The notes beneath the pieces were generated by a model. The model worked only from the letters and a program-made list of their open reading frames with translations, had not been told where the DNA came from and did no database searches. Below, one piece after another: positions 12,948-49,536 of a stretch of DNA of 64,000 bases; within the stretch, counting starts at the first letter, position 1; the number at the start of each line of letters is the position of its first letter. Origin of the DNA: Rikenella sp. (GTDB lineage Bacteria > Bacteroidota > Bacteroidia > Bacteroidales > Rikenellaceae); the NCBI GenBank assembly GCA_031551865.1, contig JAVBMY010000012.1, positions 8,753-72,752 on the forward strand, in the 5' to 3' direction. Position numbers and translations under genes: made by a program.

Positions 12948-13180
12948 AGCCGTAAATCGTTCGTTAAACGATTTACGGCTTTGAATCCGCTCTGCGGCTT
13001 CCTCCTCCTTGCGCCTCGGCAATCTGCAAATAAATTTGCATTGCACTCGGCTACTGCGCCGGGTCTTAATGCTTGAGGTTCGAGGGAGCGGGATTTCGGG
13101 GTAGTGGCTTCAAAAAAAGCATCGACGCTACCCTCGCGCCACGCCGGGTCCTTTTTTTGAAGCCACTACCCCGAAATCCC
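12948..13180 (-). repeat. L-element copy 2 (30-bp perfect stem) plus T module plus S hairpin
   Basis: 13090-13119 pairs with 13151-13180; T module at 12981-13066; S hairpin at 12948-12980. Confidence 0.9.
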
Positions 13181-13262
13181 TTGAGAACAAAACAACCCGG
13201 TGGAGGGAGTGGAAAAAAGGAAAAGAAGAAAAACAATAATGAAATTATATTAACCCACCCTT

Positions 13263-14651
13263 ATGGTAGAAAAAATCAAACGAAAACTGGCCCATTCGCC
13301 CTCGGCGCGCTGGATTGTGCTGGCCATGGTCTCGCTCACCATGTTCGCCGGCTACTTCCTGTGCGACGTGATGGCGCCCCTGAAAAACGCCATGACCGAA
13401 CTCTTCGGCTGGGACAACACCGACTTCGGCATCTTCAACAGCGGCTACGGCTGGCTGAACGTATTCCTGCTGATGCTCATCTTCGGCGGTATCCTGCTCG
13501 ACCGCTGGGGCCCGCGCCGCACCGGCGTGCTGGCCGTAGGAGTGATGGTGATCGGCATCGCCGTTAAATACTATGCCGTCGCCTTCATGGACGGCCACGA
13601 AATGAGCCACTTCTGGTTCTTCGGCGAGCGTGCCGTCCGAACCCAGGTGTTGCTGGCCGCCGCCGGCTTCGCCATCTTCGCCCTGGGCTACGAAGTCGTG
13701 GGGATCACCGCCACCAAGATCATCGTCCGCTGGTTCAAAGGCCGGGAAACCGCCCTCGCCCTGGGGCTGAACGTATCGCTGGCGCGCCTGGGCAGCGCCC
13801 TGGCCATGATCGCCCCCGTGCCGCTGTACAAGTGGTCGGGTTCGATCGGTTTTCCCATCCTGTTCGGTTTGGTATTACTGGCCATCGGTTTTGTGGGCTT
13901 TATGGTCTACGTGGTGATAGAACGCGACGCCACGGCCGCCGACACCAAGTCCGCCGAAGCCGAGCGCTTTCACCTGCGCGACGTATTCACGATCTTCGCG
14001 ATGCGCGGATTCTGGTACGTGGCCATGCTCTGCCTGCTCTTCTACTCGGCCATCTTCCCGTTCCTGAAATACGCCCCGGACATCATGATGCAGAAGTTCG
14101 GCATCAGCGAATCGTGGTCGGGATTCGTGCCGTCGTTGCTGCCCTTCGGAGCCATACTGCTTACGCCTCTGTTCGGCAACATCTACGACCGGCGCGGAAA
14201 AGGAGCCACGATGATGATCCTCGGGTCGCTGATGCTGGTCTTCATATATTCGATCTTTGCAATCCCGGCCGCCAGCCACTGGCTGATTGCCGCCGGGCTC
14301 GTCATCGCCATGGGAATCGCCTTCTCGCTGGTGCCCTCGGCCATGTGGCCCTCGGTGCCGAAGATGATCCCCGAGCGCAAACTCGGCACCGCCTACGCCC
14401 TGATCTTCTGGATCCAGAACGTTGGGCTTTCGTGCGTTCCGCTGCTGATCGGATGGATGCTCGACCGCTGGGGAACACTGCCCCCGGCCGTGGTCGACGG
14501 GAAAGCAGTCGCCCAATACGACTACACCCTGCCCATGCTCGCTTTTCTGTGCATCAGTGGCCTGGCCGTACTCTTCGGCCTGCTGCTCAAACGCGAAGAC
14601 CGCCTGCGCGGCTACGGTCTCGAAAAACCGAACATCACTACTGCAGCGTAA
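13263..14651 (+). CDS. MFS transporter
   Basis: About 12 TM segments; GGILLDRWGPRR motif A. Confidence 0.92.
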   Translation: MVEKIKRKLAHSPSARWIVLAMVSLTMFAGYFLCDVMAPLKNAMTELFGWDNTDFGIFNSGYGWLNVFLLMLIFGGILLDRWGPRRTGVLAVGVMVIGIAVKYYAVAFMDGHEMSHFWFFGERAVRTQVLLAAAGFAIFALGYEVVGITATKIIVRWFKGRETALALGLNVSLARLGSALAMIAPVPLYKWSGSIGFPILFGLVLLAIGFVGFMVYVVIERDATAADTKSAEAERFHLRDVFTIFAMRGFWYVAMLCLLFYSAIFPFLKYAPDIMMQKFGISESWSGFVPSLLPFGAILLTPLFGNIYDRRGKGATMMILGSLMLVFIYSIFAIPAASHWLIAAGLVIAMGIAFSLVPSAMWPSVPKMIPERKLGTAYALIFWIQNVGLSCVPLLIGWMLDRWGTLPPAVVDGKAVAQYDYTLPMLAFLCISGLAVLFGLLLKREDRLRGYGLEKPNITTAA

Positions 14652-14671
14652 AACGAAAAGTTTCTCTGAAC

Positions 14672-14822
14672 AAAGAGCGGCCAGCCCACCGGGTTGGCCG
14701 CTGTCATAAGCATGGCACCCTTCACCGAGAAAGAAGCGCCCGGCCTTGCTAAGCACACCCTCCGGTGCGCCGCTCGGCCACAAAGTCCGGAGAAAAGCAG
14801 GCCTGCCTTACGGCAAGCCGCA
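14672..14822 (+). repeat. Mosaic repeat (A, partial B, D)
   Basis: aaagagcggccagccc..gggttggccgc; gagaaagaagcgcc; ggagaaaagcaggcctgcc. Confidence 0.8.
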
Positions 14823-14890
14823 CAATAGACGCGAAAAGCCTTCCGAACACCCTTGCCAGCGTGGGGCAAAATGCGTAGCTTTGCAGGCAT

Positions 14891-16474
14891 ATGGGGAAAC
14901 GGCTGCACCTAAATATTCTCAGGGGTGACAAGGCGCTATGGATCATAGTCAGCCTGTTGTTGCTCGTGTCGCTGCTGATCGCCTATTCCGCCACCACCTC
15001 GGTCGCCTACCGTGTCTACGGCGGCGACTACACCTTTTACCTCTTCCGGCAAATCCGGTTCATCATGATCGGCTTTTTCGTCATCATCCTGTTCCACAGC
15101 CTCAACTACAAAGGATACGCGAAAATCCCCAAAAGCCTGTTCTGGGTGAGCCTTGCGCTCGTGGCCCTGGTCTACTTCATCGGGCTGAGCAAAAACGAGG
15201 CCTCGCGTTGGATGGGCATCCCGGGGCTGATCGCATCGTTCCAGCCTTCGGAAATCCTCAAAGTCGCTTTAATTATCCTGCTCGCCCAGCAACTCGGTGC
15301 CCGGCAGCACTACATCGGGCGCGCCCCGCTGCTTCCCCCGCTCACCTCGGGCGGCTGGAAGGCCAATCCCCAGCGCAGCCGCAACATCTACCACAACATC
15401 AGCAAGCCCCTGCTGCTCCCGCTGCTGCTGAGCTGCGCCCTGGTCATGCCCTCGAACCTCTCGACCGCCCTGATCATCTTCGGGGCCTGCACTGTGATGA
15501 TGTCCGCGGGTGGCGTCCGGGCGCGCCAGCTGACCAAATTCGTTTTCCTCACCCTTCTGGCCGGACTGCTCATGCTGAGCGCCATGAAACTGGCCGGCGT
15601 GGGACGGGCGCAAACCCAGTTCAACCGCATCGTGCAATTTGTGACCCCGGCGGCCGGCGAGAACGGCGGCGAAGAGTCGAACGCCAACAAATTCCAGGTC
15701 GAACAAGCCAACATCGCCATCGCCTCGGGCGGCATCTTCGGCAAAGGCCCCGGCAACAGTACCCAGCGCTCGCAACTCCCCCACGCCTACGACGACTTCG
15801 TGTACGCCTTCATCGTCGAAGAATACGGCCTCGTGGGCGGCATTATCATCTTCGTACTCTACCTGTGGCTCTTCTACCGGTCGGGACTGATCGCCAGCCA
15901 GACCCGGCACCCCGCCAAAGCGCTGATCGTGATCGGGCTGAGCACCATGATCACCATGCAGGCCTTCGTGAACATGTGCGTGTCGGTGGGGCTGATGCCC
16001 GTCACCGGGCAGCCGCTGCCCCTGATCAGCATGGGAGGCAGTTCGGTAATGATGACCTGTGTGGCCATCGGACTGATCCTGGGCGTGAGCCGCGAGAACG
16101 AAAAAGAACGCCTGGCCGAAGAGAAGGCTTTGGCTGCCGAAGCCGCCGAAGAAGAAGCATCGCCCGCTGCTGCAGGGGTTGCCGCTTTGCCGCGCGCCGC
16201 GGACGATAACAAAGTTCTTGCAAGCTCTAAAACAGAGGCTACCGGACCTCCTGACCACAGCCATTCGGCACCCGTCAGTAAAGCGAATAAAAAGACCTCG
16301 CTCTTTGCCCGACAAGAAGCCCCTTCTTCGCCAGTTCCGGTTGTTGCAGGCGAAGACGACGATGAACTTCGGCTCGTGGATCGCAGCGCGCCCGGCACCA
16401 CTGCCACCGGTACCGGACACCGCGAAGTGATCAACCTCGAAGACGACGACTGGGATGATGAAGCGCCGTTCTAA
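14891..16474 (+). CDS. ftsW: SEDS peptidoglycan polymerase FtsW, with long acidic C-tail
   Basis: SFQPSEILK, GKGPGNS, DFVYAFIVEEYG, PVTGQPLPLISMGGSS. Confidence 0.93.
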   Translation: MGKRLHLNILRGDKALWIIVSLLLLVSLLIAYSATTSVAYRVYGGDYTFYLFRQIRFIMIGFFVIILFHSLNYKGYAKIPKSLFWVSLALVALVYFIGLSKNEASRWMGIPGLIASFQPSEILKVALIILLAQQLGARQHYIGRAPLLPPLTSGGWKANPQRSRNIYHNISKPLLLPLLLSCALVMPSNLSTALIIFGACTVMMSAGGVRARQLTKFVFLTLLAGLLMLSAMKLAGVGRAQTQFNRIVQFVTPAAGENGGEESNANKFQVEQANIAIASGGIFGKGPGNSTQRSQLPHAYDDFVYAFIVEEYGLVGGIIIFVLYLWLFYRSGLIASQTRHPAKALIVIGLSTMITMQAFVNMCVSVGLMPVTGQPLPLISMGGSSVMMTCVAIGLILGVSRENEKERLAEEKALAAEAAEEEASPAAAGVAALPRAADDNKVLASSKTEATGPPDHSHSAPVSKANKKTSLFARQEAPSSPVPVVAGEDDDELRLVDRSAPGTTATGTGHREVINLEDDDWDDEAPF

Positions 16475-16507
16475 GTGCGCACCCGCACTGGGGATTATTC
16501 TTTCGTA

Positions 16508-16794
16508 GAGAAAAGAGCGGCCAGCCCGGCCCCCCGGTCGGCTCGCAAAGAAAAAAACGCCCGCCCGCACCCGGCGAGGTACGAGGTCGCGCCAACAATT
16601 ACTTACCCGTTGGCAGGCCAGTTAACTTTTACGAATTGTGGTTGACAGGATGTCCCTGATGCCTGCGGTTGGCCGGTTGCCGACGCAGGAGGAATTCGCG
16701 CCCGCCCCGGCCCCCTTTAGGGCGGGCGCACTCCTTTACCGGAATCGTATGCACAATTCCGTTTCAGTCGGTACGGCCCCCTTACGGGGCCGCC
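16508..16794 (+). repeat. Mosaic repeat (partial A, B, C)
   Basis: gagaaaagagcggccagccc; gcgcccgccc..gggcgggcgc; tcagtcggtacggccccc..ggggccgcc. Confidence 0.8.
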
Positions 16795-16844
16795 AAAAGC
16801 ACCCTCCGACCAACCCCTGCCTGCCCCGCAACCACTCTCCATAC

Positions 16845-18236
16845 ATGACCTACAAAAACATATACTTCATCGGCATCGGCGGCATTGGCATGAGCGCCCT
16901 GGCCCGCTACTTTCGCCACGAAGGCTGCGCCGTGAGCGGCTACGACCGCACCCCGAGCCCCCTGACCGCCGAACTCGAAGCCGAAGGCATCGCCGTACAC
17001 TACGACGACAACACCGGGCTCATACCCGATGACATACGGCAAAGCCCCCCCGCGGAAACCCTCGTCGTCTACACCCCCGCCGTGCCCGCCGACCACAGCG
17101 AGTTGCAATGGTTCCGGGCTAACGGCTACGAAGTGCTGAAACGCTCGCGCACCCTCGGCATCATCGGCGCCCATAAACGCGTAATGGCCGTGGCCGGTAC
17201 CCACGGCAAGACCTCGACCACCACCATGGCCGCCTGGTTCAATACCCGCGGCGCAGGCCAGGGGAGCGCCTTCCTGGGCGGCATCTCGAAGAACTTCGGC
17301 AGCAACCTCGTGCTCGGCCCCGGCGAACGGCTGGCCGTTGAAGCCGACGAATTCGACCGCTCGTTCCTGCAACTCGAACCGCAGGCCGCCGTCATCACCT
17401 CGACCGACGCCGACCACCTCGACATCTACGGCAACGCCGAAGCCTTTGCCGAAGCCTTCGAAGCCTTTGCCCGACAAATCAAACCCGGCGGCACCCTGAT
17501 CACCAAAGAAGGGATCGGCCTCTCCGCCGGCCGCATCGACATCGGGCGCTACACCTACTCGCTCGACGACAAAAACAGCGACTTCCACGCCGAAAACCTC
17601 ACCGTCGACACCACCGGGCACTACACCTTCGACCTCGTGCTGCCCGACCACCGCATCGACGACTGCCGGCTCGGCATCCCCGGCGCCGTGAACGTCGAGA
17701 ACTGCGTGGCCGCCGCCGCCCTCTGCTGGACCGAAGGCTTCACGTCGGACGACAATCTTAAAGAAGCCATCGCCACTTTCAGCGGCGTACGCCGCCGGTT
17801 CGACTTCCACGTCAACACCCCGCAGGTGGTCTACATGGACGACTACGCCCACCACCCGACCGAGCTGGCCGCCATGCTGACCTCGGTGCGCGGCATGTTC
17901 CCCGGCCGGAGCGTAACCCTCGTGTTCCAGCCCCACCTCTATACCCGCACGCGCGATTTCGCCCCCGCGTTCACCGAAGCGCTGAGCCTGGCCGACCACC
18001 TGCTGCTGCTGCCCATCTACCCTGCCCGCGAAGAGCCCATCGAAGGCGTCAGCTCCGAAATGCTGCTGCGCGGAATCCACGTGCCGGGAAGCAGCGAGAT
18101 CGTGCAGAAAGAGGAGCTGATCGCGCGGCTGTCCGCACTCGACTTCGACATCCTGGTCACCGCCGGTGCGGGCGACATCGACCGCTTCTGCGAGCCGATC
18201 GCAGCGTTGGTTCGGCAAAGGGTAGCGGAAAAATAA
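16845..18236 (+). CDS. murC: UDP-N-acetylmuramate--L-alanine ligase
   Basis: GIGGIGMSALA, AGTHGKTST, EADEFDRSF, DDYAHHPTE, FQPHLYTRTRD. Confidence 0.97.
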   Translation: MTYKNIYFIGIGGIGMSALARYFRHEGCAVSGYDRTPSPLTAELEAEGIAVHYDDNTGLIPDDIRQSPPAETLVVYTPAVPADHSELQWFRANGYEVLKRSRTLGIIGAHKRVMAVAGTHGKTSTTTMAAWFNTRGAGQGSAFLGGISKNFGSNLVLGPGERLAVEADEFDRSFLQLEPQAAVITSTDADHLDIYGNAEAFAEAFEAFARQIKPGGTLITKEGIGLSAGRIDIGRYTYSLDDKNSDFHAENLTVDTTGHYTFDLVLPDHRIDDCRLGIPGAVNVENCVAAAALCWTEGFTSDDNLKEAIATFSGVRRRFDFHVNTPQVVYMDDYAHHPTELAAMLTSVRGMFPGRSVTLVFQPHLYTRTRDFAPAFTEALSLADHLLLLPIYPAREEPIEGVSSEMLLRGIHVPGSSEIVQKEELIARLSALDFDILVTAGAGDIDRFCEPIAALVRQRVAEK

Positions 18237-18309
18237 AGGCATTTACCCGTCCCCGAGTGACTCCGGCGCCGGGTATCGCCGCTACTACTGGCATTGCCAC
18301 CTTTGCCGG

Positions 18310-18572
18310 AAAAAAGCGGCGGCCCCCAGCCTCCTCCCGACGGCCCACCGACGACCATAGCGAGGGTGACCGAATTTATTCAGATCGCCGAGCAAGTAGG
18401 AGAAAGAGGCCACAACGTGGACTCAAAGGCCGTGGGGCTGGGCACTCGGCTGATGCACGAGAAAAGGCGGCCACCCCACCCCCGTGAGCGACCTTTGTCC
18501 GCTGGGGTGGCCGCGGCATAAACACTACAACCTTCGCGGAGAAAAGCAGGCCTCGCTGCGCGAGGCCTGCCA
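18310..18572 (+). repeat. Mosaic repeat (hairpin with nested T module, then A and D)
   Basis: T-like 18350-18426 (reverse orientation) inside cccagcc..acggcc/ggccgt..ggctggg; A at 18467-18545; D at 18539-18572. Confidence 0.8.
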
Positions 18573-18621
18573 CAAACACGGCACAGAAATTGTGCAGAAC
18601 CTGACAAACGCAAACCATCCG

Positions 18622-19776
18622 ATGAGTAACCCGACCCCCGACACACCTTCGCAAGCGCGCCCGATCCGCGTGATCCTGAGCGGCGGCGGCACCGCAGGAC
18701 ACATCCACCCTGCGCTCGCCACGGCCGACGCCCTGCGCTCCCAATGCGGCGGCGGCGTCAAAATCCTCTTCGTGGGCGCCCTCGGAAAAATGGAGATGGA
18801 GCGCGTACCCAAAGCCGGTTACGACATCGAAGGGCTCCCTGTGGCCGGGCTGCAACGCCGCCTCTTATCCCTCGAAAACTTCGCGCTGCCGTTCAAAATC
18901 ATGAACAGCATCCGCCGCGCCCGCGCCATCATCCGCAAATTCAAGCCCGACGTCGTGGCCGGTTTCGGCGGCTATGCCAGTGCCCCCGTGCTCTTCGCCG
19001 CCCAACGGGCCGGCATCCCCACCCTGATCCAGGAACAAAACTCATTTGCCGGGCTGACCAACAAACTGCTCGCCCGCCGGGCGCGCCGCATCTGCACCGC
19101 CTACGACGGCATGGAACGCTTCTTCCCCCGCGAGCGCATCGTACCGACCGGCAACCCCCTGCGCGGTTGCTTCGACGGCATCGACGGCAAACGCGGCGAA
19201 GCCATCGCCCACTATTGCTTCAAACCCGAACGCAAAACCATCCTCGTGCTCGGCGGCAGCCTCGGCACCCGCACCCTCAACCGCAGCATGATGCGCTGGC
19301 TCGACACACTGGCCGGGCGCGATGACGTGCAGGTGATCTGGCAAAGCGGCCGCTACTACGAAGCCTCTCTCGAACAGGAGATCGCCGCGCGTCCCGGCGG
19401 ACAACCCGCCCACATCTGGCGCAGCGCCTTCATCGAACGGATGGACATGGCCTATGCCGCCGCAGACGTGGTGATCTCACGCGCCGGGGCCAGCACCGTT
19501 TCCGAATTGGAACTGGTGGGGAGGGCCGTGATCTTCGTACCGTCGCCCAACGTGGCCGAAGACCACCAGACCCACAACGCCCGCTCGCTCGTCGAACGAG
19601 GCGCCGCCCTGATGGTGACCGACGCCGAAGCCGAAGAGAAAGCCATCCCGCTGGCGCTCAAACTACTCGGCGACGACACCCGGCGCGAAGCGATGGCCTT
19701 GAAAATCAAAACACTCGGCCGCCCCGCCGCAGCAAGCGACGTGGCGCGGGAGATCATTGGGCTGGCGGAGCGATAA
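18622..19776 (+). CDS. murG: Lipid II GlcNAc transferase
   Basis: SGGGTAGHIHP, GFGGYAS, EQNS, GNPLR, GGSLG, SRAGA, DHQTHNA. Confidence 0.97.
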   Translation: MSNPTPDTPSQARPIRVILSGGGTAGHIHPALATADALRSQCGGGVKILFVGALGKMEMERVPKAGYDIEGLPVAGLQRRLLSLENFALPFKIMNSIRRARAIIRKFKPDVVAGFGGYASAPVLFAAQRAGIPTLIQEQNSFAGLTNKLLARRARRICTAYDGMERFFPRERIVPTGNPLRGCFDGIDGKRGEAIAHYCFKPERKTILVLGGSLGTRTLNRSMMRWLDTLAGRDDVQVIWQSGRYYEASLEQEIAARPGGQPAHIWRSAFIERMDMAYAAADVVISRAGASTVSELELVGRAVIFVPSPNVAEDHQTHNARSLVERGAALMVTDAEAEEKAIPLALKLLGDDTRREAMALKIKTLGRPAAASDVAREIIGLAER

Positions 19777-19786
19777 AGTTGCCACC

Positions 19787-20035
19787 AGAGAAAAAACGTC
19801 CCGCACCAGCCGCCGAAACAGAGAAACTCGCGCCCACTCCGCAAGATGCAAAGCGTCTGGGTCTGTCGGTTACCATAAGCACTACACCCTTCGCGGAGAA
19901 AGAAGCGCCCACCCGCACCTGGCGAGTTCGCGAAGCGAACTGCGGGTGGGCCCCGGCCTCGCTAAGCATGGCTCTGCGCGTGCAGCCCGGCCGCCAAGCC
20001 CGGAGAAAGGCAGGCCTGCCTCACGGCAGGCCGCC
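19787..20035 (+). repeat. Mosaic repeat (A tail, B, D)
   Basis: cataagcactacacccttcgcggagaaagaagcgcccacccgca..tgcgggtgggc; ggagaaaggcaggcctgcc. Confidence 0.8.
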
Positions 20036-20118
20036 AAAAGAAACGGGGTACACAGACGCACCCCGACGACAAACCGCGACTCCGGCCCCACGACCGAAGA
20101 CCGTCCGAACCACACCGA

Positions 20119-20928: not shown

Positions 20929-20997
20929 CCCCGGGCCGGTATGACCCGGCCGACCACAAAACCACACCCCCAGAGTCCTAAACACCCTCTCCGCCCC

Positions 20998-26936: not shown

Positions 26937-28370
<1,434 letters not shown>

Positions 28371-28420
28371 GGTTCTGCTCTGACCGCGGGATAGCATCGT
28401 TCTTCTTTTTCAAAAGACGG

Positions 28421-28500
28421 GCTGACGCTGGCAGTGAGTGCAATCAAGTTTGCTTGCATTGCCGAGCGCCGAGGAGGAAAAGGCCACGCAGTGGACTTAA
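28421..28500 (-). repeat. T module copy
   Basis: Reverse complement ttaagtccactgcgtggccttttcctcctcggcgctcggcaatgcaagc..attgcactc matches 12981, 30146 and 49397. Confidence 0.85.
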
Positions 28501-28768
28501 CCAAGAAAACTTTTCTGAATGCTCCGCATTCCTCTTTTCAGCATTGCGGCGAAGAGGTGCGTAGCGCCTCGTGAATCTGATTACGAAAACCCATCTTGAA
28601 AGCAAGCTTTCGAAGTGATCTTTCGTAATCAAATTCATAATTCAATGCCTTCGGCATTTTTGCCACAATGAGAAATAGGCAGGAAACGTAATTTCCAAAA
28701 AAGTTCTTTTAATTCTTTTCTTTCAAGAAAAGAATGCCCGCCCGGCGAGGGCGTCAAATTATAAGCGC

Positions 28769-30109
28769 ATGGCAGACAGGAAATTCATTGTGGTGATCGG
28801 AGGCGGCGAGAGCGGCTACGGTTCGGCGGTCTTGGCGCAGGAACAGGGCTTTGAGGTGTTGGTGAGCGATAGCGGGGCCATTAAGGAGCCTTACCGTTCG
28901 CAGTTGGCCGAACGCGGGATAGCCTTCGAGGAAGGTGGGCACAGCGAAGAGAAGATACTCGGCGCCGCCGAGATCATCAAAAGTCCCGGCGTGCCCGATA
29001 GCGCACCCTTGATCGTGAGAGCAAGGGAGCGAGGGATTCCCATCATCTCCGAGATCGAATTCGCCGGTCGCTATACCGGCGGCGCAAAGACCATCTGCAT
29101 CACCGGCAGCAACGGTAAAACCACCACCACCTCGCTGATATATGAGATCCTGCGCGGGGCGGGTTTCGACGCCGAGTGCTGCGGCAACATCGGGCGGAGC
29201 TTCGCCCAGGTTGTCGCCGAGCGCGGCGAGCGGCAACCCCGGTGGTACGTGCTTGAGATCAGCAGTTTCCAGCTCGACGGCATGTACGATTTCCGCGCCG
29301 ACATCGCCCTGCTGCTCAACATCACCCCCGACCATCTCGACCGCTACGACCACCGCATGGCGCTGTACTCCTCCAGCAAATTCCGTGTGGCGCGTAACCA
29401 GCGCCCTGGCGACACGTTCGTCTACTGCGCCGACGACCCCGAGATAGGGAGCGGTTTAGCTGACGCCCCCGGTGCAGCCGTACGGGTTCCCTTTTCGGTG
29501 ACGCGTCCCGTGGCCGGCGCCTGGTTCGACGGCACCCTGCTCCACTTCGAAGACTTTTCCTTTCCAGCCCCGGCGCTGAAAATCAAAGGGCTGCATAACA
29601 TCCTCAACGCACTGGCCGCCATCGTGGCCACCCTGCGGGCCGGCGCCGCCCCCGAAGCCGTGGCCAGCGGACTCGAAACCTTCGCAGGCGTCGAGCACCG
29701 CCTCGAACACGTGCGCTATGTAGGCAACGTCGAATACATCAACGACTCGAAAGCCACCAACGTCGCCTCGGTGCGCTACGCCCTCCAATCCATGACCCGC
29801 CCCACCGTCTGGATCGCCGGGGGCACCGACAAAGGCAACGACTACAAAGAGATCGAGTCCCTCGTGCGCGAACACGTCAAAGCCCTCGTCTGCCTGGGCG
29901 CCGACAACGCCAAACTCGTCAAAGCCTTCACCGGCGTGGTGCCCGAAATCTACGACACTCATTCGTTGGAAGAGGCCATTGCCGCCTGCCGCCGCGCTGC
30001 CGCGAGCGGCGACATCGTACTGCTCTCGCCCGCCTGCGCAAGCTTCGACCTGTTCCGGAACTACGAAGATCGCGGCCGGCAGTTCAAGGCCGCCGTGAAG
30101 GCGCTGTAA
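28769..30109 (+). CDS. murD: UDP-MurNAc-L-Ala--D-Glu ligase
   Basis: GGGESG, ITGSNGKTTT, LEISSFQL, PDHLDRY, NDSKATN, SPACASFD. Confidence 0.97.
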   Translation: MADRKFIVVIGGGESGYGSAVLAQEQGFEVLVSDSGAIKEPYRSQLAERGIAFEEGGHSEEKILGAAEIIKSPGVPDSAPLIVRARERGIPIISEIEFAGRYTGGAKTICITGSNGKTTTTSLIYEILRGAGFDAECCGNIGRSFAQVVAERGERQPRWYVLEISSFQLDGMYDFRADIALLLNITPDHLDRYDHRMALYSSSKFRVARNQRPGDTFVYCADDPEIGSGLADAPGAAVRVPFSVTRPVAGAWFDGTLLHFEDFSFPAPALKIKGLHNILNALAAIVATLRAGAAPEAVASGLETFAGVEHRLEHVRYVGNVEYINDSKATNVASVRYALQSMTRPTVWIAGGTDKGNDYKEIESLVREHVKALVCLGADNAKLVKAFTGVVPEIYDTHSLEEAIAACRRAAASGDIVLLSPACASFDLFRNYEDRGRQFKAAVKAL

Positions 30110-30111
30110 GC

Positions 30112-30480
30112 AAAAGGCGGCCACCCCACCCCCGCGAGCGGCCTTTGAGTCCTTCGGTCTCCTGCTCCTTGTGCCTCAGCAATTCAAGCAAGCTTGATTG
30201 CACTCGGCTACTGCGTCGCTCGTGCGCTGGGGTGGCCGCGGTATAAGCATTGCACCCTTCGCGGAGAAATTCGCGCCCACCCCCCTCGGGGGGGGCGCGC
30301 TCCCTCGCCGACAAATGCCTGACGGCATTCGCGGCTCAGTCGATACGGCCCCTACGGGGCCGCCGAGCCGCGCACTTCGCGACTAAAGTCGCTCCGTGAC
30401 GCGGCCGCTACGGCCTCGCGGAGTTTACCCGGCCGAAGCTGCGAGGAACGAAGCAGGCAGCCGAATGGGCGAGGCCTCCA
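30112..30480 (+). repeat. Most complete mosaic repeat: A[T nested]-B-C-D[Z nested]
   Basis: A 30116-30268 with T at about 30146-30218; C 30333-30365 identical to 60419-60451; Z 30421-30468. Confidence 0.9.
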
Positions 30481-30553
30481 TCGACACCGAGAGTCTCCGG
30501 ATGCCGCCTACAACCCGAAAACCCCGAACCATTAGCTATCAACCTACACGCCG

Positions 30554-31804
30554 ATGTTCTACCACTTAGCAGACTACCTCCGTTCCAATTTCGACACCCC
30601 CGGCGCCGGGATGTTCGCCTACATCTCGTTCCGCTCGGCGGGCGCCATCGTACTAGCCCTTGTCATAGGGCTGATCTTCGGCAAAAGGATCATCAAGTTC
30701 CTGCAACGCAAACAGATCGGCGAAGACATCCGCGACCTCGGCCTCGACGGCCAGATGCAAAAGAAAGGTACCCCCACCATGGGCGGCCTGATCATTCTGG
30801 GCGCCATCCTGATCCCCGTGCTGCTGCTCGCCGACCTGACCAATACCTACGTCTGGCTTATGCTTGCCGCCACCGTGTGGCTCGGCTTCATCGGCTTCAT
30901 CGATGACTACATCAAGGTTTTCAAAAAACGTAAAGAAGGCCTCAAGGGCCGTGTCAAGATCCTCGGGCAAGTGGTGCTCGGCGTGCTTGTGGGTACCACC
31001 GTCTGGCTCAGCGGCGACATCACCGTGCGCGAACCCGTGCCCCGCAACACCCACGGCGTCGAGCGCGTCGAAGCCGAAGACCTCGTGAACCAGCGCAAAG
31101 TGGTCTACCTTTCGGCCCCCGAGAAGTCGACCGCGACTACCGTCCCCTTCTTCAAGAACAGCGAACTCGACTACCGCGACCTGGTGCCCGCCGAAGGCAA
31201 GCTGGGCGACACGCTGGGCTGGCTGCTCTACATACTGGTGGCGATCATCGTCATCACAGCCGTGTCGAACGGCACCAACCTGACCGACGGCCTCGACGGG
31301 CTGGCGGCCGGAACGTCGGCCATCATCATCCTGGTGCTCGGCTTTTTGGCCTACCTGTCGGGCAACGTGATCTACTCCGACTACCTGAGCATCATGAACA
31401 TTCCGGGCAGCGGCGAACTGATGATCTTCGCGGCGGCCTGCCTCGGGGCCCTGCTGGGGTTCCTGTGGTACAACGGCTATCCGGCGCAAGTGTTTATGGG
31501 CGACACGGGGAGCCTCGCCATCGGCGGTATCATCGCCACGTTCGCTTTGCTGATCCGCAAGGAGCTGCTGTTGCCGATCCTGTGCGGTATCTTCCTCGTG
31601 GAAAGCTGTTCGGTGATGATCCAGGTGTCGTGGTTCAAATACACCAAAAAGAAGTACGGCGAAGGCCGCCGCGTGTTCCTGATGACGCCCCTGCACCACC
31701 ACTACCAGAAGAAAAACTACCACGAGAATAAGATCGTGTTGCGCTTCTGGATCGTCCAGCTCATGCTCGCCGCCATCACCCTGATGACCCTCAAGATCCG
31801 GTAG
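30554..31804 (+). CDS. mraY: Phospho-MurNAc-pentapeptide transferase
   Basis: [37 protein letters not shown]. Confidence 0.97.
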
Positions 31805-33587: not shown

Positions 33588-33776
33588 GATATTGAGTTTA
33601 TTAGGGATCACGCTATGCGGCACATTTCGGCCCAAAGCACAGCCCGCGAGGCCGCCTGAGTCCGCTTCGCGGCTTCCTGTTCCGCGACCTGCCCGGGGCA
33701 CCGACCCCTGCTGTCGTTTCGGGCGTCCCTTCGCACCCGGGATACCCGGTGCGCGGGTTGCAGGCAAGTCGTGGTC

Positions 33777-41009: not shown

Positions 41010-41018
41010 AAATGGGGA

Positions 41019-42202: not shown

Positions 42203-42276
42203 CGTCATTACGAGAAGCCTGAAATGCGAGCGAAGCAATCCTCCTGTATGGGAAGATTGCTTCGCTCGCAACGACG
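42203..42276. repeat. CGTC-type REP inverted dimer
   Basis: cgtcattacgag..gcgaagcaatc / gattgcttcgctcgcaacgacg. Confidence 0.75.
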
Positions 42277-42356
42277 GAGTCATAGACCCTCTATAGGCAT
42301 GACTACACGGGGAAACCGATACGATTAAGGGCTAATCGCCGCTGTACATAAATACC

Positions 42357-43517
42357 CTACGACAGGAACCCGAGCAGGACACCGGCCGCCACAGCCGAGC
42401 CGATCACCCCGGCCACATTGGGGCCCATGGCGTGCATGAGCAGGTAGTTCGTTTTGTCGTATTTGATGCCGACGTCCTGCGACACGCGGGCCGCGGCGGG
42501 CACGGCCGACACTCCGGCATTGCCGATCAGGGGATTGATCTTATTACCCTCTTTGAGGAAGAGGTTGAAGAACTTGACGAAAAGCACCCCGCTGAACGTG
42601 GCCACGAAGAACGAGGCCGCGCCGAGGAAGAATATCCCGAGTGATTTGTAGGTGATAAACGTGGTGGCTTGCGTCGAGGCGCCCACGGTCAGGCCGATCA
42701 GGATGGTCACGATGTCGATCATCGGGCCGCTGGCAGTGGTGGCCAGACGTTTGGTGACGCCGCTCTCTTTAAGCAGGTTGCCCAGGAAGAGCATCCCGAG
42801 CAACGGCAGGGCGGCCGGCACGATGAAGGTAGTCAGCAACATCCCGATCACAGGGAACATGATCTTTTCGCGTTGCGACACCTGGCGTGGGGCCTTCATC
42901 TTGATCAGGCGCTCTTTCTGCGTAGTGAGCAGGCGCATCACGGGCGGTTGGATCACCGGCACGAGGGCCATGTAGGAGTAGGCCGCGATGGCAATGGCAC
43001 CGAGCAGATCGGGCGCGAGTTTCGAAGTCAGGAAGATGGCGGTCGGGCCGTCGGCGCCGCCGATGATCCCGATGGCTCCGGCTTCGGCTCCTGTAAAGCC
43101 GAGGCCGAGGGCGGCCATATAGGCTCCGAAGATGCCGAACTGGGCCGACGCACCCACGAGCATCAGCTTGGGGTTGGAGATCAGCGCCGAGAAGTCGGTC
43201 ATCGCCCCGATCCCGAGAAAGATCAGCGGTGGGTAGATCCCGTGCAGCACCCCGAAATAGAGGTAGTTAAGCACCGACCCGCTTTCGTACACGCCGATCT
43301 CGAAACCCGGGGGGAAGGGAATGTTCCCCATGATGACCCCGAACCCGATGGGGAGCAGGAGCATCGGTTCGAATTTCTTGGCGATGGCGAGGTAGATCAG
43401 CAGGATCCCCGCGGCGATCATGGCGATATGCCCCCAGGTGACGTGGGCAAAGCCGGTATCGGTGAGGAACTGGAGGATGTTGTTGCCTATGAATGAAAAG
43501 AAGTTGCTTTGTTCCAT
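42357..43517 (-). CDS. mmdB: Na+-translocating decarboxylase beta subunit
   Basis: EPMLLLPIGFG, GIIGGADGPT, GVSAVP, HAMGPNVAGVIGS. Confidence 0.93.
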   Translation of the reverse strand: MEQSNFFSFIGNNILQFLTDTGFAHVTWGHIAMIAAGILLIYLAIAKKFEPMLLLPIGFGVIMGNIPFPPGFEIGVYESGSVLNYLYFGVLHGIYPPLIFLGIGAMTDFSALISNPKLMLVGASAQFGIFGAYMAALGLGFTGAEAGAIGIIGGADGPTAIFLTSKLAPDLLGAIAIAAYSYMALVPVIQPPVMRLLTTQKERLIKMKAPRQVSQREKIMFPVIGMLLTTFIVPAALPLLGMLFLGNLLKESGVTKRLATTASGPMIDIVTILIGLTVGASTQATTFITYKSLGIFFLGAASFFVATFSGVLFVKFFNLFLKEGNKINPLIGNAGVSAVPAAARVSQDVGIKYDKTNYLLMHAMGPNVAGVIGSAVAAGVLLGFLS

Positions 43518-43523
43518 CGTATG

Positions 43524-43976
43524 CTACCCTATCGTGATTAAGGTATCGCCTTCGAGCACGGTACTGCCTTTCTGGGCGTTGATTTCGCGCACTACGCCGT
43601 CGCGGTCGGAGTCGATGCTGTTTTCCATTTTCATGGCTTCGAGCACCATGATTTTCTGTCCGGCCTTGACAGTGTCGCCGGGTTTGACGAACACTTCGAT
43701 GATCACTCCGGGCAGCGGGGCTTTGATGTGGCCTGCGGCGGCCGAAGCGGTCGAGGCGGGACTCGACGTGCGGGCAACGGCGGGATGGGTGTCGGTCGAA
43801 GAGACGGTGGTGGATTGCTGCACGATCTTGGGGGTTTTGGGCTGGTGCGACACCATGCCTTCGACTTCGACTTCGTATTCGGTGCCGTTGACGTTCACGA
43901 AGGCGGTGTTGTCTTCGACGCTGGAGATCGTGACGGCGTAGTCGTTACCGTTGATTTTTATCTTGTATTCTTTCAT
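43524..43976 (-). CDS. mmdC: Biotin carboxyl carrier (gamma) subunit
   Basis: EAMKM biotinylation motif. Confidence 0.93.
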   Translation of the reverse strand: MKEYKIKINGNDYAVTISSVEDNTAFVNVNGTEYEVEVEGMVSHQPKTPKIVQQSTTVSSTDTHPAVARTSSPASTASAAAGHIKAPLPGVIIEVFVKPGDTVKAGQKIMVLEAMKMENSIDSDRDGVVREINAQKGSTVLEGDTLITIG

Positions 43977-44107
43977 GGCTGTGTGGTTCGATGGAGAGTT
44001 CCGGGAGGACCGGACGTCGGGCCGGGAATCGTGTGGCCCGGAACGGTTTTAGTATTTCACGCGGGCGTAAATCGCGGGTGTTTTCGGCAAGGGCAAACGG
44101 CCCCGGG

Positions 44108-45031
44108 TTATTTTTTGGACAGGCGGTTGGTGAGTCCGTAGATTTTGGAGCTCCACGGAGAGTAAGCCTTGGCGATGCGGTTGATGGTAAGCACGTGGGT
44201 TTCGATGTCGTGCATATCGTCGTCGTAGCGGCGCAGGGCGATGGCAATGGCTGCAATCTCTTCGCCGATGATGTCGTCGGGTTTCATCAGCGGCTTCTCG
44301 GCGACGGGTGCGGCGGCGATAGCCTTCTTCTCCTTGCGGAGCGTGGCGCGCACCATAACCTTGCCGAGCATCTTGAAGATCAAGTACAGCAATACGAGGG
44401 CCACGAATACAACGCTCATGGCGGTGATGGCCATCACGATGCCGGAGGGGTCCCGCTGGCGGAATTTTTCGTGGGGCAGGACGGCCTCTTCAAGGTTGTT
44501 GGTCTGCATGGGGGTGATACCGGGCAGCACGCCGAATTTCGACTCGCGGGTGTCGGGGTCGTAGATCCAGCCGATCGACACGTCGGGTTGCTGGGCAGCC
44601 AGGTCGTATTCGAGCGAGTCGAGGGGAGTGCGGCCCTGGTCGAGCAGGTAGAGGCGCCCGGTCTGGTCGAGGGTGAAGTTGGTGTGCAGGGTGCCGCGGT
44701 TCGATTCGCCGTTGGCGAAAAAAATCACGTAGCCCTGCGGGGCGATGAGCGTGCGGGCGTCGTTCTTGGGGATACGGTAGGTGCGCGAACGGTCGGCCGG
44801 GTCGATGCTCAGGAAAGCGCCTCCCACGTCGACATAGGAGTATCCGGTGTTGTAAAGTTCGATCCAGCTGCTGTGGTTGGCGTGGTCGTCGGCGTAGCTG
44901 GTCTCGTTGATCACGAGCACTTCGTTGATCCGGATGTCCTTGAGTCCCTCGGCAGCGGCGGCAAAGGGGAACATTCCGGCCGCGAGCAGCAGGGCGGCGC
45001 GCCACGTTTTACGTTTCGGTAGTTGTAGCAT
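44108..45031 (-). CDS. OadG/MmdD-type subunit fused to an N-terminal lamin-tail-like domain
   Basis: Signal peptide; IRINEV..SWIELYN (LTD-like); TM AMSVVFVALVLL; AAIAIAL..SPWSSK. Confidence 0.8.
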   Translation of the reverse strand: MLQLPKRKTWRAALLLAAGMFPFAAAAEGLKDIRINEVLVINETSYADDHANHSSWIELYNTGYSYVDVGGAFLSIDPADRSRTYRIPKNDARTLIAPQGYVIFFANGESNRGTLHTNFTLDQTGRLYLLDQGRTPLDSLEYDLAAQQPDVSIGWIYDPDTRESKFGVLPGITPMQTNNLEEAVLPHEKFRQRDPSGIVMAITAMSVVFVALVLLYLIFKMLGKVMVRATLRKEKKAIAAAPVAEKPLMKPDDIIGEEIAAIAIALRRYDDDMHDIETHVLTINRIAKAYSPWSSKIYGLTNRLSKK

Positions 45032-45040
45032 GGGCAGCGG

Positions 45041-46603
45041 TTAGAGGGGAATGTTGGTGTGCTTCTTGAGCGGATTGACCACTTTTTTGGTAGCCAGCGA
45101 CTGCAGGGCGCGGATGATCCGGAAGCGGGTGTTCATCGGCTCGATCACGTCGTCGATGTAGCCGTATTTGGCGGCCACGTAGGGATTGGCGAATTTCGCG
45201 GTGTACTCTTGCTCTTTTTCGGCCAGGAATTCGGCACGTTTGGTTTCGTCGGCGATGGCGCCGGCCTCTTTGGCCATAAGCACTTCGACGGCACCCGAGG
45301 CTCCCATCACGGCGATCTCGCCGGTGGGCCAGCTGTAGTTGATGTCGCCGCGCAGGTGTTTGCTGCTCATGACGCAGTAGGCTCCGCCGTAGGCTTTGCG
45401 CAGGATGACGGTGATCTTGGGCACGGTGGCTTCGCCGTAGGCGAACAGGAGCTTGGCGCCGTGGGTGATGATGCCGCCGTATTCCTGGGCGGTACCGGGC
45501 AGGAAACCGGGCACGTCGACCAGGGTCACGATGGGGATATTGAAAGCGTCGCAGAAGCGCACGAAGCGGGCGGCCTTGCGCGAGGCGTTGATGTCGAGCA
45601 CGCCGGCGTAGTATTTGGGCTGGTTGGCGATGATACCGACGCTCTGGCCGTTGAAACGGGCGAACCCGGTGACGATGTTGGGGGCGAAGGTCTTTTGCGA
45701 TTCGAGGAATTCGCCGCTGTCTACGATGGCTTTGATCACGTCGAGCACGTCGTAGGGTTTGTTGGGGTTGTCGGGGATGAGCTCGTTGAGCGACTCTTCG
45801 AGGCGGTTGGCGTCGTCGGCCGAGGCTACGAGCGGGGCGTCTTCGAGGTTGTTCTGGGGCAGGTAGCTGAGCAGCTTGCGGATCATCGAGATGCCTTCCT
45901 GTTCGGTCTCGCTCACGAAGTGGGCCACGCCGCTTTTGGTGGAGTGCATCGAGGCGCCGCCGAGTTGTTCCTGGGTCACTTCTTCACCGGTGACGGTTTT
46001 GACGACTTTGGGGCCGGTGACGAACATATAGCTGGTGCCTTTGTTCATCAGGATGAAGTCGGTCAGGGCCGGTGAATAGACGGCTCCGCCCGCGCAGGGG
46101 CCGAAGATGGCCGAAATCTGGGGAATCACGCCGCTGGCCATGATATTGCGCTGGAAGATTTCGGTATATCCGCTCAGGGCGTTGACAGCCTCCTGGATGC
46201 GGGCCCCGCCGGAGTCGTTGATGCCGATTACCGGAGCGCCGTTCTTCATGGCCATGTCCATCACTTTGCAGATTTTCTGGGCGAAGGTTTCGGACAACGA
46301 ACCGCCGAAGACGGTGAAATCCTGCGAGAACACATACACCAGGCGGCCGTCGATGGTGCCGTAGCCGGTCACGACGCCGTCGCCGTAGTAGGACTCTTTT
46401 TCGATCCCGAAGTTGGTGCAGCGGTGGGTGACGAACATGTCGAACTCTTCGAACGAGCCTTCGTCGAGCAGCAGGTCGATGCGCTCGCGGGCGGTGAGCT
46501 TGCCTTTGGCATGCTGGGCGTCGATGCGTTTCCGGCCGCCGCCGAGCTTGGCTTTTTCGCGCAGTTCGACGAGTTCCTTGATTTTGGTCTGATTGGCACT
46601 CAT
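45041..46603 (-). CDS. mmdA: Methylmalonyl-CoA decarboxylase carboxyltransferase (alpha) subunit
   Basis: [36 protein letters not shown]. Confidence 0.93.
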
Positions 46604-46716
46604 GGTGTGGTGTGTTTTTGGCTTCTTTAAACGGATGGCTTCGGCTGCCGTTCTCTCACAAGAAAACGGCTATAGGCCCGGTGCGGCACAACCAATGAGC
46701 CGCCGCCGGACATTAT

Positions 46717-47136
46717 TTATTTGCAGTCGCAGTTTTTGTCTTCGCAGAGTTCGGTGAGCACGCCCTGGGTAGACTTGGGGTGCAGGAAGGCGATGGAGAG
46801 CCCTTCGGCGCCGCCGCGGGGTTCTTTATCGAGCAATTGGAGCCCGGCGGCATCGGCATCAACCAAAGCACCTTCGAGGCCTTCGACGGCGAACGCGAGG
46901 TGATGGAATCCTTCGCCGCGTTTCTCGATGAATTTGGCAATGGTGCTCTCTTCCGAGGTAGGTTCGAGCAGTTCGATCTTGGTCTGGCCCACTTTGAAGA
47001 ACGCCGTTTTGACTTTTTGGTCGGCCACCTCTTCGATGTTGTAGCACTTCAAGCCAAGTACCTGTTCGTAGTAAGGAATAGCCTGTTCGAGATTCTTGAC
47101 GGCGATGCCGATATGCTCGATGTGTGTAACTTTCAT
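46717..47136 (-). CDS. mce: Methylmalonyl-CoA epimerase
   Basis: HIGIAV, IELLEP, GFHHLAF, FLHPKST..LTELC. Confidence 0.95.
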
Positions 47137-47233
47137 AATATTAGGATTTTATGCTTTGAAATCAAAAATTAAGTCACAAAGTTACTAAATCAAACCGTAA
47201 CCCCCAAGCGGTTTTGCGGTGATTTTACGGGGT

Positions 47234-47635
47234 TCAGGGATTATTTTTCACCACCCTTCCGCGAATCGTCGCTTCAATGGGCTGCGGCGCGGGGGGCGAG
47301 GTCTCGAAACGGAGGCTCTTGTAGAAACCGCCCGTATCGGTGGGCGTGAAAACCACGGTGACGACCGTGCTGTCGCCCGGCATCAGCGGTTTGCGCGACC
47401 ACGTGGGTTTGGTGCACTTGCAATCGACCGCGATGTCGCGGATCACGAGCGGCGCCGTGCCTTCGTTGCGGCACACCAGCCGGATGGTATTTTTGGATTT
47501 GACGGTCACGTCGCCGAGCTCGACGGCGCGGGGGGTCACGGTCAGGCTTTGCGCCGAGGCATCGCCTGAAACAAAGCACAACGAAAAGAGTAGCAGCGCA
47601 AAAACACAGCACACGATTTTCCGACCCTGTTTTAT
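47234..47635 (-). CDS. DUF1573-like Ig-fold protein (start codon uncertain)
   Basis: N.GTAPLVI....CKCT..W...L.PG motif after a signal-peptide-like stretch. Confidence 0.75.
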   Translation of the reverse strand: MKQGRKIVCCVFALLLFSLCFVSGDASAQSLTVTPRAVELGDVTVKSKNTIRLVCRNEGTAPLVIRDIAVDCKCTKPTWSRKPLMPGDSTVVTVVFTPTDTGGFYKSLRFETSPPAPQPIEATIRGRVVKNNP

Positions 47636-47960
47636 AGGATGCGGCCCGGCACCCACCCCCTCAGCGTCTCGTTTTAGATTTCGACCCGGCTCCCACTCCC
47701 CGAGGCCGCAAAGCGGCCTGGGCGCACAGGTCGCGGGCTGTGAACAGCCCGGCGCTGCCAACGTACGAAGCCTGGCAACTTTTTTAATTTCTGAAATTTC
47801 GGGGAAACAGGGATGAGGTTTGCGGGCCATCGGCAGGTCGGTGTTACGAAAGAAAATAATCGCAGCAAATTTAATACCTTTGTTTGGTTAATACCGTCCG
47901 CCAGCTCTGAAAAATGGGCCCGACACCAACAATCCGGCAACAATATCAACACATACATCC

Positions 47961-49166
47961 ATGAAAAAGACCCTCTCCCTGCTCTGCCTGGCCGTGCTGA
48001 CGGCTACCGCCGGGCCCGCCGCCGCCAAGAAATCCCCCTTCAAAGGCATCGACCCCGCAATCGCCGCCGCCGCTCAAAAAAACATCGAAGCCGCCGGTGC
48101 CAACGGCCCCGAACTGCTGAAAGCCATCACCGAATCCCCCAAAAAGCAGCGCGAAGGCATGGCCTTCGTAGTGGCTTATATGCCCGCCGGCGACCGCGAC
48201 ACGCTGACCGCCGCCTTCCTGCTCGAAGAAGTAAGCTGGGCTTACAAAGCCCGCGAGACCTTCCCGTGGGTCAAGGGCCTTCCAGACTCGATCTTCTACA
48301 ACGAAGTGCTGCCCTACGCCTCGTTCAACGAAACCCGTGAACCGTGGCGCGCCATGTTTTGGGAGATGCTCTACCCCGTGGTCAAGGACATCAAGGACGA
48401 ACGCGCGGCCCTCGATACCATCAACAAAGCCATCGCCAAGCTCACCGGCGTGGAATACAACACCAAGCGCCGCAAAGCCAACCAGTCGCCCTCGGAGTCT
48501 ATCAGCCAGGGCATGGCCTCGTGCACCGGCCTGTCGATCCTGTTGACCGACGCCCTGCGCACCGTGGGCATCCCCTCGCGCGTGGCCGGAACCCCCATGT
48601 GGGTGACGATGGAAGGTAACCACAACTGGAGCGAAGTATGGCTCGACGGCCAATGGCACTTCATCGAATACTACCCCACCCCGGCGCTCGACCGCAGCTG
48701 GTTCCTCGAACGCGCGGGCAAAGCCGACAAAACCAAACCGATGCACTGGATCTACGCCATGTCGTGGAAAACTACCGGACTCGACTTCCCCTGGGGATGG
48801 GGCCGCGGCCGCGGTGGCAATAGCCTTCCCGCCCACGATGTGACCGACCGCTACATCTCGCTCTACAACGCCCAGATGGCTGAATCGGCCAAGGGTGTCC
48901 GCACCGCGATCCGCGCCTACAGCGCCGGCGCGGCCGACCGTTCGAGCGCTTCGCGGGCCGCTGTCGACATTCGCGTGGTGGACGACGCGAACAAGATGGT
49001 TGCCGCCGGAACCACCGCCGGGCCCACCGCCGATATGAACGACTATCTGGTGCTCTACCTGCCCGAAGGCAAAACGCTGACCCTTTTATATAAGGACAGC
49101 GCCGGCGCCGACCAGAGCGTGAGCGTGAACACCGCCGCTGCGCAGGACATCGAGTTGGTGTACTAA
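47961..49166 (+). CDS. Secreted transglutaminase-like domain protein
   Basis: Signal peptide; ASCTGLS..ALRTVGIPSR, NHNWSEVW. Confidence 0.85.
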   Translation: MKKTLSLLCLAVLTATAGPAAAKKSPFKGIDPAIAAAAQKNIEAAGANGPELLKAITESPKKQREGMAFVVAYMPAGDRDTLTAAFLLEEVSWAYKARETFPWVKGLPDSIFYNEVLPYASFNETREPWRAMFWEMLYPVVKDIKDERAALDTINKAIAKLTGVEYNTKRRKANQSPSESISQGMASCTGLSILLTDALRTVGIPSRVAGTPMWVTMEGNHNWSEVWLDGQWHFIEYYPTPALDRSWFLERAGKADKTKPMHWIYAMSWKTTGLDFPWGWGRGRGGNSLPAHDVTDRYISLYNAQMAESAKGVRTAIRAYSAGAADRSSASRAAVDIRVVDDANKMVAAGTTAGPTADMNDYLVLYLPEGKTLTLLYKDSAGADQSVSVNTAAAQDIELVY

Positions 49167-49197
49167 TTTCCAGAAACGACTTCGTACGCTCATAGTG

Positions 49198-49536
49198 AAT
49201 CGCCCGCGGCCAGGGGCCGAAACTCGCAAAGCGAGTTTGGCCGCGGACGATTGGCTGACGCAAAAGAAATTCGCAGCCGTTCCGCCGTCCGAAAAGAAGC
49301 GCCCGGCCCGTAGCCCCCTCGCGCAAAGCGCTACGGGCCGGGCGCTCTCCTTTACCAGAACCGTTTGCACGGTTCCGGCTCAGTCGGTACGGCCCCTTAA
49401 GTCTGCTACGCAGCCTTTTCCTCCTCGACGCTCGGCAATTTGCAAACGAATTTGCATTGCTCTCGCTCCAGCGTCGGTTGCGGGGCCGCCATTCGGCTTC
49501 CTTCTTCGTTCCTCGCAGCTTCGGCAGGGTAAACTC
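49198..49536 (+). repeat. Mosaic repeat: B, C[T nested], inverted Z
   Basis: gaagcgcccggcccgtagc..gctacgggccgggcgc; ctcagtcggtacggcccc[T 49397-49478]ggggccgcc; Z at 49489-49536. Confidence 0.88.

Follow-up and report, generated by a model that had tools for sequence, protein, structure and literature searches.

A 64,000-nt stretch of Rikenella sp. DNA (GenBank assembly GCA_031551865.1, contig JAVBMY010000012.1, positions 8,753 to 72,752; hereafter the window) carries five copies of a small repeat, here called T. We propose, with a probability of about 70%, that T represents a family of non-autonomous, gene-less mobile repeats of ~79-82 nt, which are moved in trans and recognised as a folded strand. 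An initial annotation of the window had described T as an independently mobile mini-element that inserts single-stranded DNA into hairpin loops under the guidance of structure. The results supported the view of T as a discrete, self-spreading unit, as judged from its sharp ends, 70 distinct contexts, nesting and species-specific subfamilies, whereas the single-strand mechanism did not find support.

The five copies reported by the initial annotation were all present as alignable copies of one ~82-nt sequence (nhmmer E-values 4e-14 to 3e-21), and the fragment that it had noticed near 33657 was identified as a 5′ piece of T (Table 1). A profile was built from the five window copies and then rebuilt from 65 full copies. 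Searching the genome from which the window derives (G000; 1.94 Mb in 18 contigs, ~59% G+C, 82.5% complete) gave 120 profile matches and 108 covariance-model matches, numbers far beyond chance. According to crude gene calls, 101 of the 120 matches are intergenic, and T makes up ~0.46% of the genome. A comparison with Rfam, which the initial annotation had suggested together with the covariance model, revealed no match at gathering scores for the window and none up to E=1 for a locus with two T copies.

Alignment of 40 copies revealed the order TT, RAGTCC-RC..GY-GGCYTY, TTCCTCCT, 5-6 variable nt, CTCGGCAAT, an inner stem, ATTGC, NCTCG, 6-8 nt and GCGTCGGTT. The element proper extends from RAGTCC to GCGTCGGTT (~79 nt) and has no coding capacity. 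Hairpin 1 (RAR-U-CCRC / GYGG-C-YUY; columns 3-21) begins on the first base of the element, right after TT, and its outer stem covaries, A3:U21 alternating with G3:C21 and G5:C19 with A5:U19. The sequence pattern given by the initial annotation was thus correct, with the refinement that its TTRARTCY forms the outer part of this hairpin, where RAR pairs with YTY. Hairpin 2 (CTCGGCAAT ... ATTGC; columns 37-75) shows compensatory changes in its inner stem (CAAGC/GCTTG, CGAAC/GTTCG, CATGT/ACATG and TGCAAA/TTTGCA). Both the pyrimidine tract TTCCTCCT between the hairpins and the 3′ end GCGTCGGTT are conserved. Analysis of the 40-copy alignment with RNAalifold and by pair counting showed 94% of cells paired in the two-hairpin fold and double changes in 12 of the 18 pairs; none of 500 shuffles and no slid register equalled it. 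Since compensatory changes keep both hairpins among copies, species and genera, recognition of a folded single strand by an enzyme acting in trans is suggested. The excess of G:T over A:C wobble pairs (23:15 for hairpin 1, 23:10 for the outer stem of hairpin 2) was too weak to tell which strand folds. Terminal inverted repeats were not found, the 5′ RAGTCC... and the 3′ ...GCGTCGGTT not being complementary.

For each full copy, the two flanks were joined and used as a query against G000, which returned paralogous uninterrupted sites for 40 of the 77 full copies (37 when a longer junction span was required). The empty site exceeded the joined flanks by exactly 2 nt (YT) in 95 of 138 alignments. 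Among the 77 copies, position −1 was T in 75, position −2 was C or T (Y) in 72, and position +1 was C or G (S) in 69; insertion is base-precise, 3′ of YT and 5′ of C/G (YT^S, where the caret marks the junction). In the host family GTTCC-CT-CGGCT, the left CT occurs in empty and filled sites alike, and the element still ends in GGTT (GGCC in one copy). Because it is the host family that sets the left dinucleotide, with the right end staying GGTT, the simplest reading of these junctions is that YT belongs to the target and that nothing would be duplicated. An exact pair lies within the window, where the empty A hairpin reads ...gagcgaccttt^gtccgctgggg... (18462-18519) and the filled one ...gagcggccttt[GAGTCC...GCGTCGCTC]gtgcgctgggg... 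(30111-30236). The difference between a short and a T-filled A loop, pointed out in the initial annotation, is therefore an insert placed exactly between ccttt and gt(c/g)cgctgggg, and its reports of a C loop that reads tac at both empty sites and holds T at 49397, and of a copy between the arms of another hairpin at 18350, were likewise confirmed. In the related genome G002, the region upstream of a reverse-transcriptase gene contains a host hairpin without T (GCAGCCCTT^CGCCGGGGG); elsewhere this hairpin is filled at the same point, and T variants also take a second point a few bases further. The target rule and the end motifs hold in further species and genera.

The 77 full copies occupy 70 distinct flank contexts, which implied that the copies in G000 are not one duplicated composite. 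Their sites are mostly other intergenic palindromic repeats, and small repeats were also found within T itself. One T lies within another at CTCGCTT^.... A 71-nt relative, T2 (AACCGGAGTTTTCCTCCTCC...CGTTCGTCGGTT), interrupts hairpin 2 of three T copies, where it follows TT; it consists of a mini-hairpin AAC-CGGA-GTT, followed by TTCCTCCTCC, a central hairpin of its own and the end CGTTCGTCGGTT. Three further T copies carry, behind the GGCAATT of hairpin 2, another repeat of ~70 nt (CC(T/C)(C/T)TGGCTT(C/T)CTCGCGCT...CTCGG(T/C)C), and the nesting is reciprocal, a T copy breaking a member of the CTCGCGCT-repeat family at C12:242913. Matches to the 5′ and 3′ halves of T in G000 pair at distances of 4-223 nt, which correspond to nested small inserts, with one additional pair 7300 nt apart. 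A long master copy, with T ends around an open reading frame, was sought through these half-match pairs in G000 and was not found among those at 4-223 nt. Orphan CGTCGGTT words occurred at chance level, and a scan of genome contigs with the 14-base pattern CTCCTNNNNNCTCGGCAAT gave only chance matches in unrelated phyla.

For the preference for hairpin loops, each empty site was rebuilt (35 nt + YT + 35 nt), folded and compared with 1500 random intergenic YT^S sites. The junction fell in an apical loop at 30 of the 77 sites (39%) vs 373 of the 1500 controls (25%; odds ratio 1.9, p=0.007), and the stricter geometry of a perfect stem of at least 6 bp around the junction was seen in 32.5% vs 16.8% of controls. 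At loop sites, the cut lies at the 3′ edge of the loop or at most 2 nt from it. The remaining junctions fell within predicted stems (26), internal loops or bulges (14) or the stretches between helices (7). Other recurring sites were the 5′ foot of an A/T-rich hairpin on either strand (gTT^CTTTTC...), a point within a stem (GGAAGATT^GCTTCG) and other T copies. In the window, three of the five copies (18346, 30145 and 49397) are located in hairpin loops and two (12981 and 28420) at hairpin feet. A roughly two-fold, non-exclusive preference for loops is thus weakly supported: the loop targeting claimed by the initial annotation is borne out as an enrichment, and not as a rule, given the 26 copies in predicted stems and the others at hairpin feet. 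Aligning the genomic copies with their flanks, a check that it had proposed, yielded this loop preference together with sharp ends and no target-site duplication.

The covariance model detected T in 11 of the 14 genus genomes, at copy numbers of at least 108, 107, 73, 72, 71, 60, 35, 34, 31, 11 and 2; these counts are lower bounds, 150 candidates having been scored. The model did not find T in the genus genomes G005 (2 contigs), G006 (98% complete) and G010. Among the sampled genomes of the family, 33 of 81, belonging to 16 of 31 genera, carry T in 1 to at least 54 copies. The nearest relative of each G000 copy is another G000 copy. In G001 and in G002 (GCA_000427365.1, an isolate assembly, 98% complete), the copies form species-specific subfamilies with 94-100% identity within the species; in these comparisons, which used the best-scoring copies of the relatives and are biased toward few subfamilies, the median within-species identity was 94% in G001, the nearest-neighbour identity was 98-99%, and the G002 copies were 98-100% identical.

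In the mechanism that we propose, the folded single strand of T would be recognised by a trans-acting enzyme encoded elsewhere, T would be pasted 3′ of the T in YT^S without duplication, and composites of T and its host hairpin can then be amplified as units. Among the genomes searched, the mover is neither a Y1 HUH transposase nor an enzyme of the IS110 type nor a common DDE transposase. IS110-type genes were not found with PF01548 in G000 or with PF02371 in G001, G002, G005, G006 and G010. We tentatively suggest, as a possibility rather than as the expected outcome, that T, T2 and variants with other 5′ hairpins may be moved by an enzyme or pathway outside the known transposase classes. It would recognise the folded strand (terminal hairpin, TTCCTCCT, second hairpin and GCGTCGGTT), paste it after T without duplication, and be shared through conservation by many genera within a single Bacteroidota family otherwise nearly free of insertion sequences (IS). 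As a separate observation, the genomes G002, G001, G005, G006, G010, G090 and G086 appear almost free of classical IS, with no Y1 in those of the genus, no IS110 and at most one DDE or rve match each, and several of them are full of small repeats.

An alternative that we consider unlikely is that T is a derivative of the PATE (palindrome-associated transposable element) or REPIN (REP doublet forming a hairpin; REP, repetitive extragenic palindromic) kind, moved by a Y1 HUH transposase of the IS200/IS605 or RAYT (REP-associated tyrosine transposase) type, which would cut single-stranded DNA 3′ of YT and 3′ of GGTT. The formal features fit, in that T lacks inverted terminal repeats and duplications, inserts behind a short word, has kept its hairpins and would be cut after T at both ends. 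In addition, the family genomes positive for Y1 are all positive for T (3/3 vs 33/81 overall). However, Y1_Tnp (PF01797) was detected in none of the 14 genus genomes, including the 98%-complete isolate assembly with its 98-100% identical copies, whereas the control genomes matched. Only three of the 81 family genomes gave matches, namely G086 (one internal stop), G032 (fragments with stops) and G080 (two weak matches), and no T adjoins the Y1 loci of these three. The orientation of T relative to the sign of the GC skew was unbiased (29/28 and 21/24), the replichores being inferred from the GC skew alone since the contigs are not closed; this is unlike IS608 and ISDra2, which target the lagging strand. 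Moreover, hairpin 1 abuts the left cut and leaves no space for a guide sequence of the IS608 type. The missing Y1 genes and the unbiased orientation leave a single-strand mechanism like that of IS200/IS605 unsupported, and the structure-guided insertion that the initial annotation had expected, in the IS200/IS605 or RAYT sense, was not borne out.

We give little credence to integration of T as a small circle by a serine or tyrosine site-specific recombinase, with crossover at the TT shared by GGTT^RAG and YT^S. Such a 2-bp crossover would account for the TT or YT at both junctions, and small serine recombinases are present in the genus (8 matches in G002). On the other side, a left CT with a right TT in one host family would need a mismatched core, and no extended identity was found between the element junction and the targets. 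Furthermore, the five clear serine-recombinase loci of G002 are without T and share no IS-like DNA, and T-free genomes also carry serine recombinases.

It is similarly doubtful that T is not self-mobile at all, being instead a conserved functional motif (an RNA or protein-binding site) or a module of a longer ancestral element whose short forms arose by deletion or by recombination of mosaic repeats. The conservation of sequence and structure across genera, the composite nature of the repeated unit in G001 and the age of the G000 copies would agree with this. Against it, the exact same boundaries recur in the 70 contexts, the position of T varies within a single host family, T occurs nested in T, and T is missing from three genus genomes and about half of the sampled genera. 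The direction of T is also independent of the flanking genes (46 same, 37 opposite), with both convergent and divergent spacers occupied. Finally, no T was found beside the orthologues of a fumarase-like gene (window 26937-28370) in 7 sister species or of the murE-region genes (window 12000-14300) in 12. As gene order is scrambled, these T-free neighbourhoods do not amount to clean empty sites. At the copy at 12981, most species have a different gene order, and those that preserve it have a spacer that cannot be aligned. Cell-wall and division genes that are neighbours in the window (12000-14300 and 26937-31804) lie tens of kb apart in most sister species; the order of genes within the genus is strongly scrambled, though the genes are 70-80% identical.

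That the group-II-intron-like reverse transcriptase (RT) of the genus spreads T by copying an RNA intermediate is very improbable: retro-insertion can give precise ends without duplication, and an RVT_1 gene of ~500 aa occurs in 9 of 11 T-positive vs 0 of 3 T-negative genus genomes, but at the family level RT is found in 8 T-positive and 5 T-negative genomes, the T-rich G090, G086 and G060 as well as G000 itself lack it, T is not consistently near the RT gene, and RT is accompanied upstream by an RNA of its own (RT-7, RF03028) with no resemblance to T. The link between RT and T within the genus, which dissolves at the family level, was therefore rejected. The RT gene is single-copy in 9 of the 14 genus genomes and weakly group-II-intron-like, with a score of 99 bits on TIGR04416 (cut-off 300). 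One to three tandem RT-7 motifs, all below the gathering score, lie upstream in three of the four loci scanned (not in G002), and the enzyme appears to be a defence-type or domesticated RT equipped with an RNA of its own.

Several points count against, or limit, the explanation proposed here. The copies in G000 are fairly old, with a nearest-neighbour identity of 83% at the median and 93% at the maximum, so that activity in this genome may have ceased. No transposition intermediate and no filled/empty polymorphism between strains of one species were seen, this DNA being present only in its source run; in the contigs of that run, an invertebrate gut metagenome, no joint skipping a T was found. 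The enzyme itself was not found, and G002, the most complete T-rich genome, is without Y1, IS110, DDE_Tnp_1 and a clear rve (a sub-threshold match only). What has been amplified in G001 is a composite, a GTTCTTTTT/AAAAAGAAC hairpin whose loop contains T, and part of the copy number in sister species stems from amplification of composites and not of T alone. Lastly, the assignment of YT to the target is the simplest reading and not proof, because the empty paralogs are not true pre-insertion sites.

T belongs to the small non-autonomous interspersed repeats, and its likenesses to known systems are partial. REP/REPIN elements are mobilised with RAYT (TnpA_REP) transposases (Bertels and Rainey, 2011, PMC3116915), of which the Bacteroidetes subclass 2.6 is associated with "atypical secondary structures" (Quentin et al., 2018, PMC6006769). 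Like T, REP/REPIN elements are short, gene-less, intergenic hairpin repeats of high copy number, with lineage-specific families and presumably structure-dependent recognition. However, they consist of a single imperfect palindrome of 20-40 nt with a GTAG or CGTC tag, often in inverted doublets, and need a cognate RAYT (Y1 HUH) gene, whereas T has 80 nt with two unlike hairpins and a pyrimidine tract, and no such gene was found for it in the 14 genus genomes. IS200/IS605 elements (IS608, ISDra2) and PATEs resemble T in lacking terminal inverted repeats and duplications, in inserting 3′ of a short word and in their essential hairpins. T differs in its word of only YT, in the first hairpin abutting the cut, in the lack of strand bias, and in that neither Y1 in the genus nor TnpB in G000 was found. 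IS1397 and ISKpn1 (Clement et al., 1999; Tobes and Pareja, 2006; both cited in PMC3116915) reportedly insert in the loops of REPs or other hairpins, much as T is found in the loops of other palindromic repeats; yet these are autonomous IS of at least 1 kb with a transposase and target duplications, in contrast to the 80-nt, gene-less T with its ~2-fold loop preference. Miniature inverted-repeat transposable elements (MITEs), such as Correia/NEMIS and those derived from ISL3 or IS5, share with T the non-autonomous, intergenic and high-copy nature, but have terminal inverted repeats and target duplications of fixed length, and T has neither. The IS110/IS1111 elements, which target hairpins or REPs and lack inverted repeats, possess a DEDD transposase, unlike T with no coding capacity. 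The small dispersed repeats (SDR) of Nostoc and other cyanobacteria are reportedly tiny, nested with base precision and free of duplications, and are not known to have an enzyme. On this description, they share with T the very small size, the base-precise insertion into one another and into other repeats and the lack of duplication, but are far shorter and belong to another phylum, and T has a covarying two-hairpin architecture. In the tests applied, T did not behave as a MITE, a REP/REPIN, an IS200/IS605 derivative or an IS110 element, and its behaviour is closest to that of the cyanobacterial SDR.

In many gut Bacteroidales, much of the DNA between genes is taken up by small gene-less repeats, whose mode of movement is not known to have been explained. 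T offers a clean handle on this movement through its exact ends, a simple target rule and two covarying hairpins. The near-identical copies in two species, one of them a cultured isolate (GCA_000427365.1), indicate recent activity; exact ends, the target rule, such recent copies and T-free sister species make the search for the mover testable. Repeats of this kind break metagenome assemblies and create hairpins beside essential genes, and they may drive the scrambling of gene order in the genus. T would be of still higher interest if its mover were a new enzyme class.

Table 1. Positions of T copies, related repeats, empty hairpins and RT loci (window positions unless a contig or locus is given).
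Feature	Position	Strand	Remarks
T copy	12981-13064	+	First two bases (TT) read as target; 2 nt 3′ of the foot of a 13-bp hairpin (gccgtaaatcgtt/aacgatttacggc)
T copy, diverged	18346-18426	-	In hairpin loop, flanking arms ccccacggcc / ggccgtcggg
T copy	28420-28500	-	At the foot of an A/T-rich hairpin (ttcttctttttcaaaagacgg) from a different repeat family; empty paralogs at C8:53980-54041 and elsewhere
T copy, short subfamily	30145-30221	+	CC-TTCG-GT first hairpin, ...GCGTCGCTC end; in loop of A hairpin (30111-30236)
T copy	49397-49479	+	In loop of C hairpin (ggcccc / ggggcc)
T 5′ fragment	33657-33683	+	Model positions 6-32: first hairpin and beginning of pyrimidine tract
Empty A hairpin	18462-18519	+	Paralog of filled 30111-30236; loop holds ccttt^gtcc
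Empty C hairpin	30333-30370	+	Loop tac, ~30347-30361
Empty C hairpin	60420-60456	+	Loop tac, ~60434-60448
Two diverged T-like units	51870-52020	-	Second begins after TT within first; profile matches 5′ halves only
T copies with T2 insert	G000 C14:137936-138131, C18:55326-55521, C14:29760-29952	-	T2 after TT within hairpin 2
T copies with ~70-nt CTCGCGCT repeat	G000 C1:197816-198010, C1:265661-265851, C12:138185-138373 (-)		Inserted after GGCAATT
RT locus with RT-7	L187:2675-3662 (G008)	-	
RT locus with RT-7	L189:2727-2878 (G001)	-	
RT locus with RT-7	L191:318-950 (G003)	+	

Some general features of G000 were also recorded. SusD was not found in this genome. The protein clusters nearest to its MurD are from Bacteroidota, which, together with the TAnnTTTG excess given below, makes this the probable phylum. 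The sign of the GC skew was anti-correlated with the gene-rich strand in 30-kb windows (15 kb to each side; 58+59 windows vs 12+26), which reverses the usual arrangement, where most genes lie on the G-rich leading strand. Among 1075 well-scoring genes, 171 had the motif TAnnTTTG in sense and 91 in antisense direction within the preceding 100 nt, which is consistent with promoters of the Bacteroidota type.

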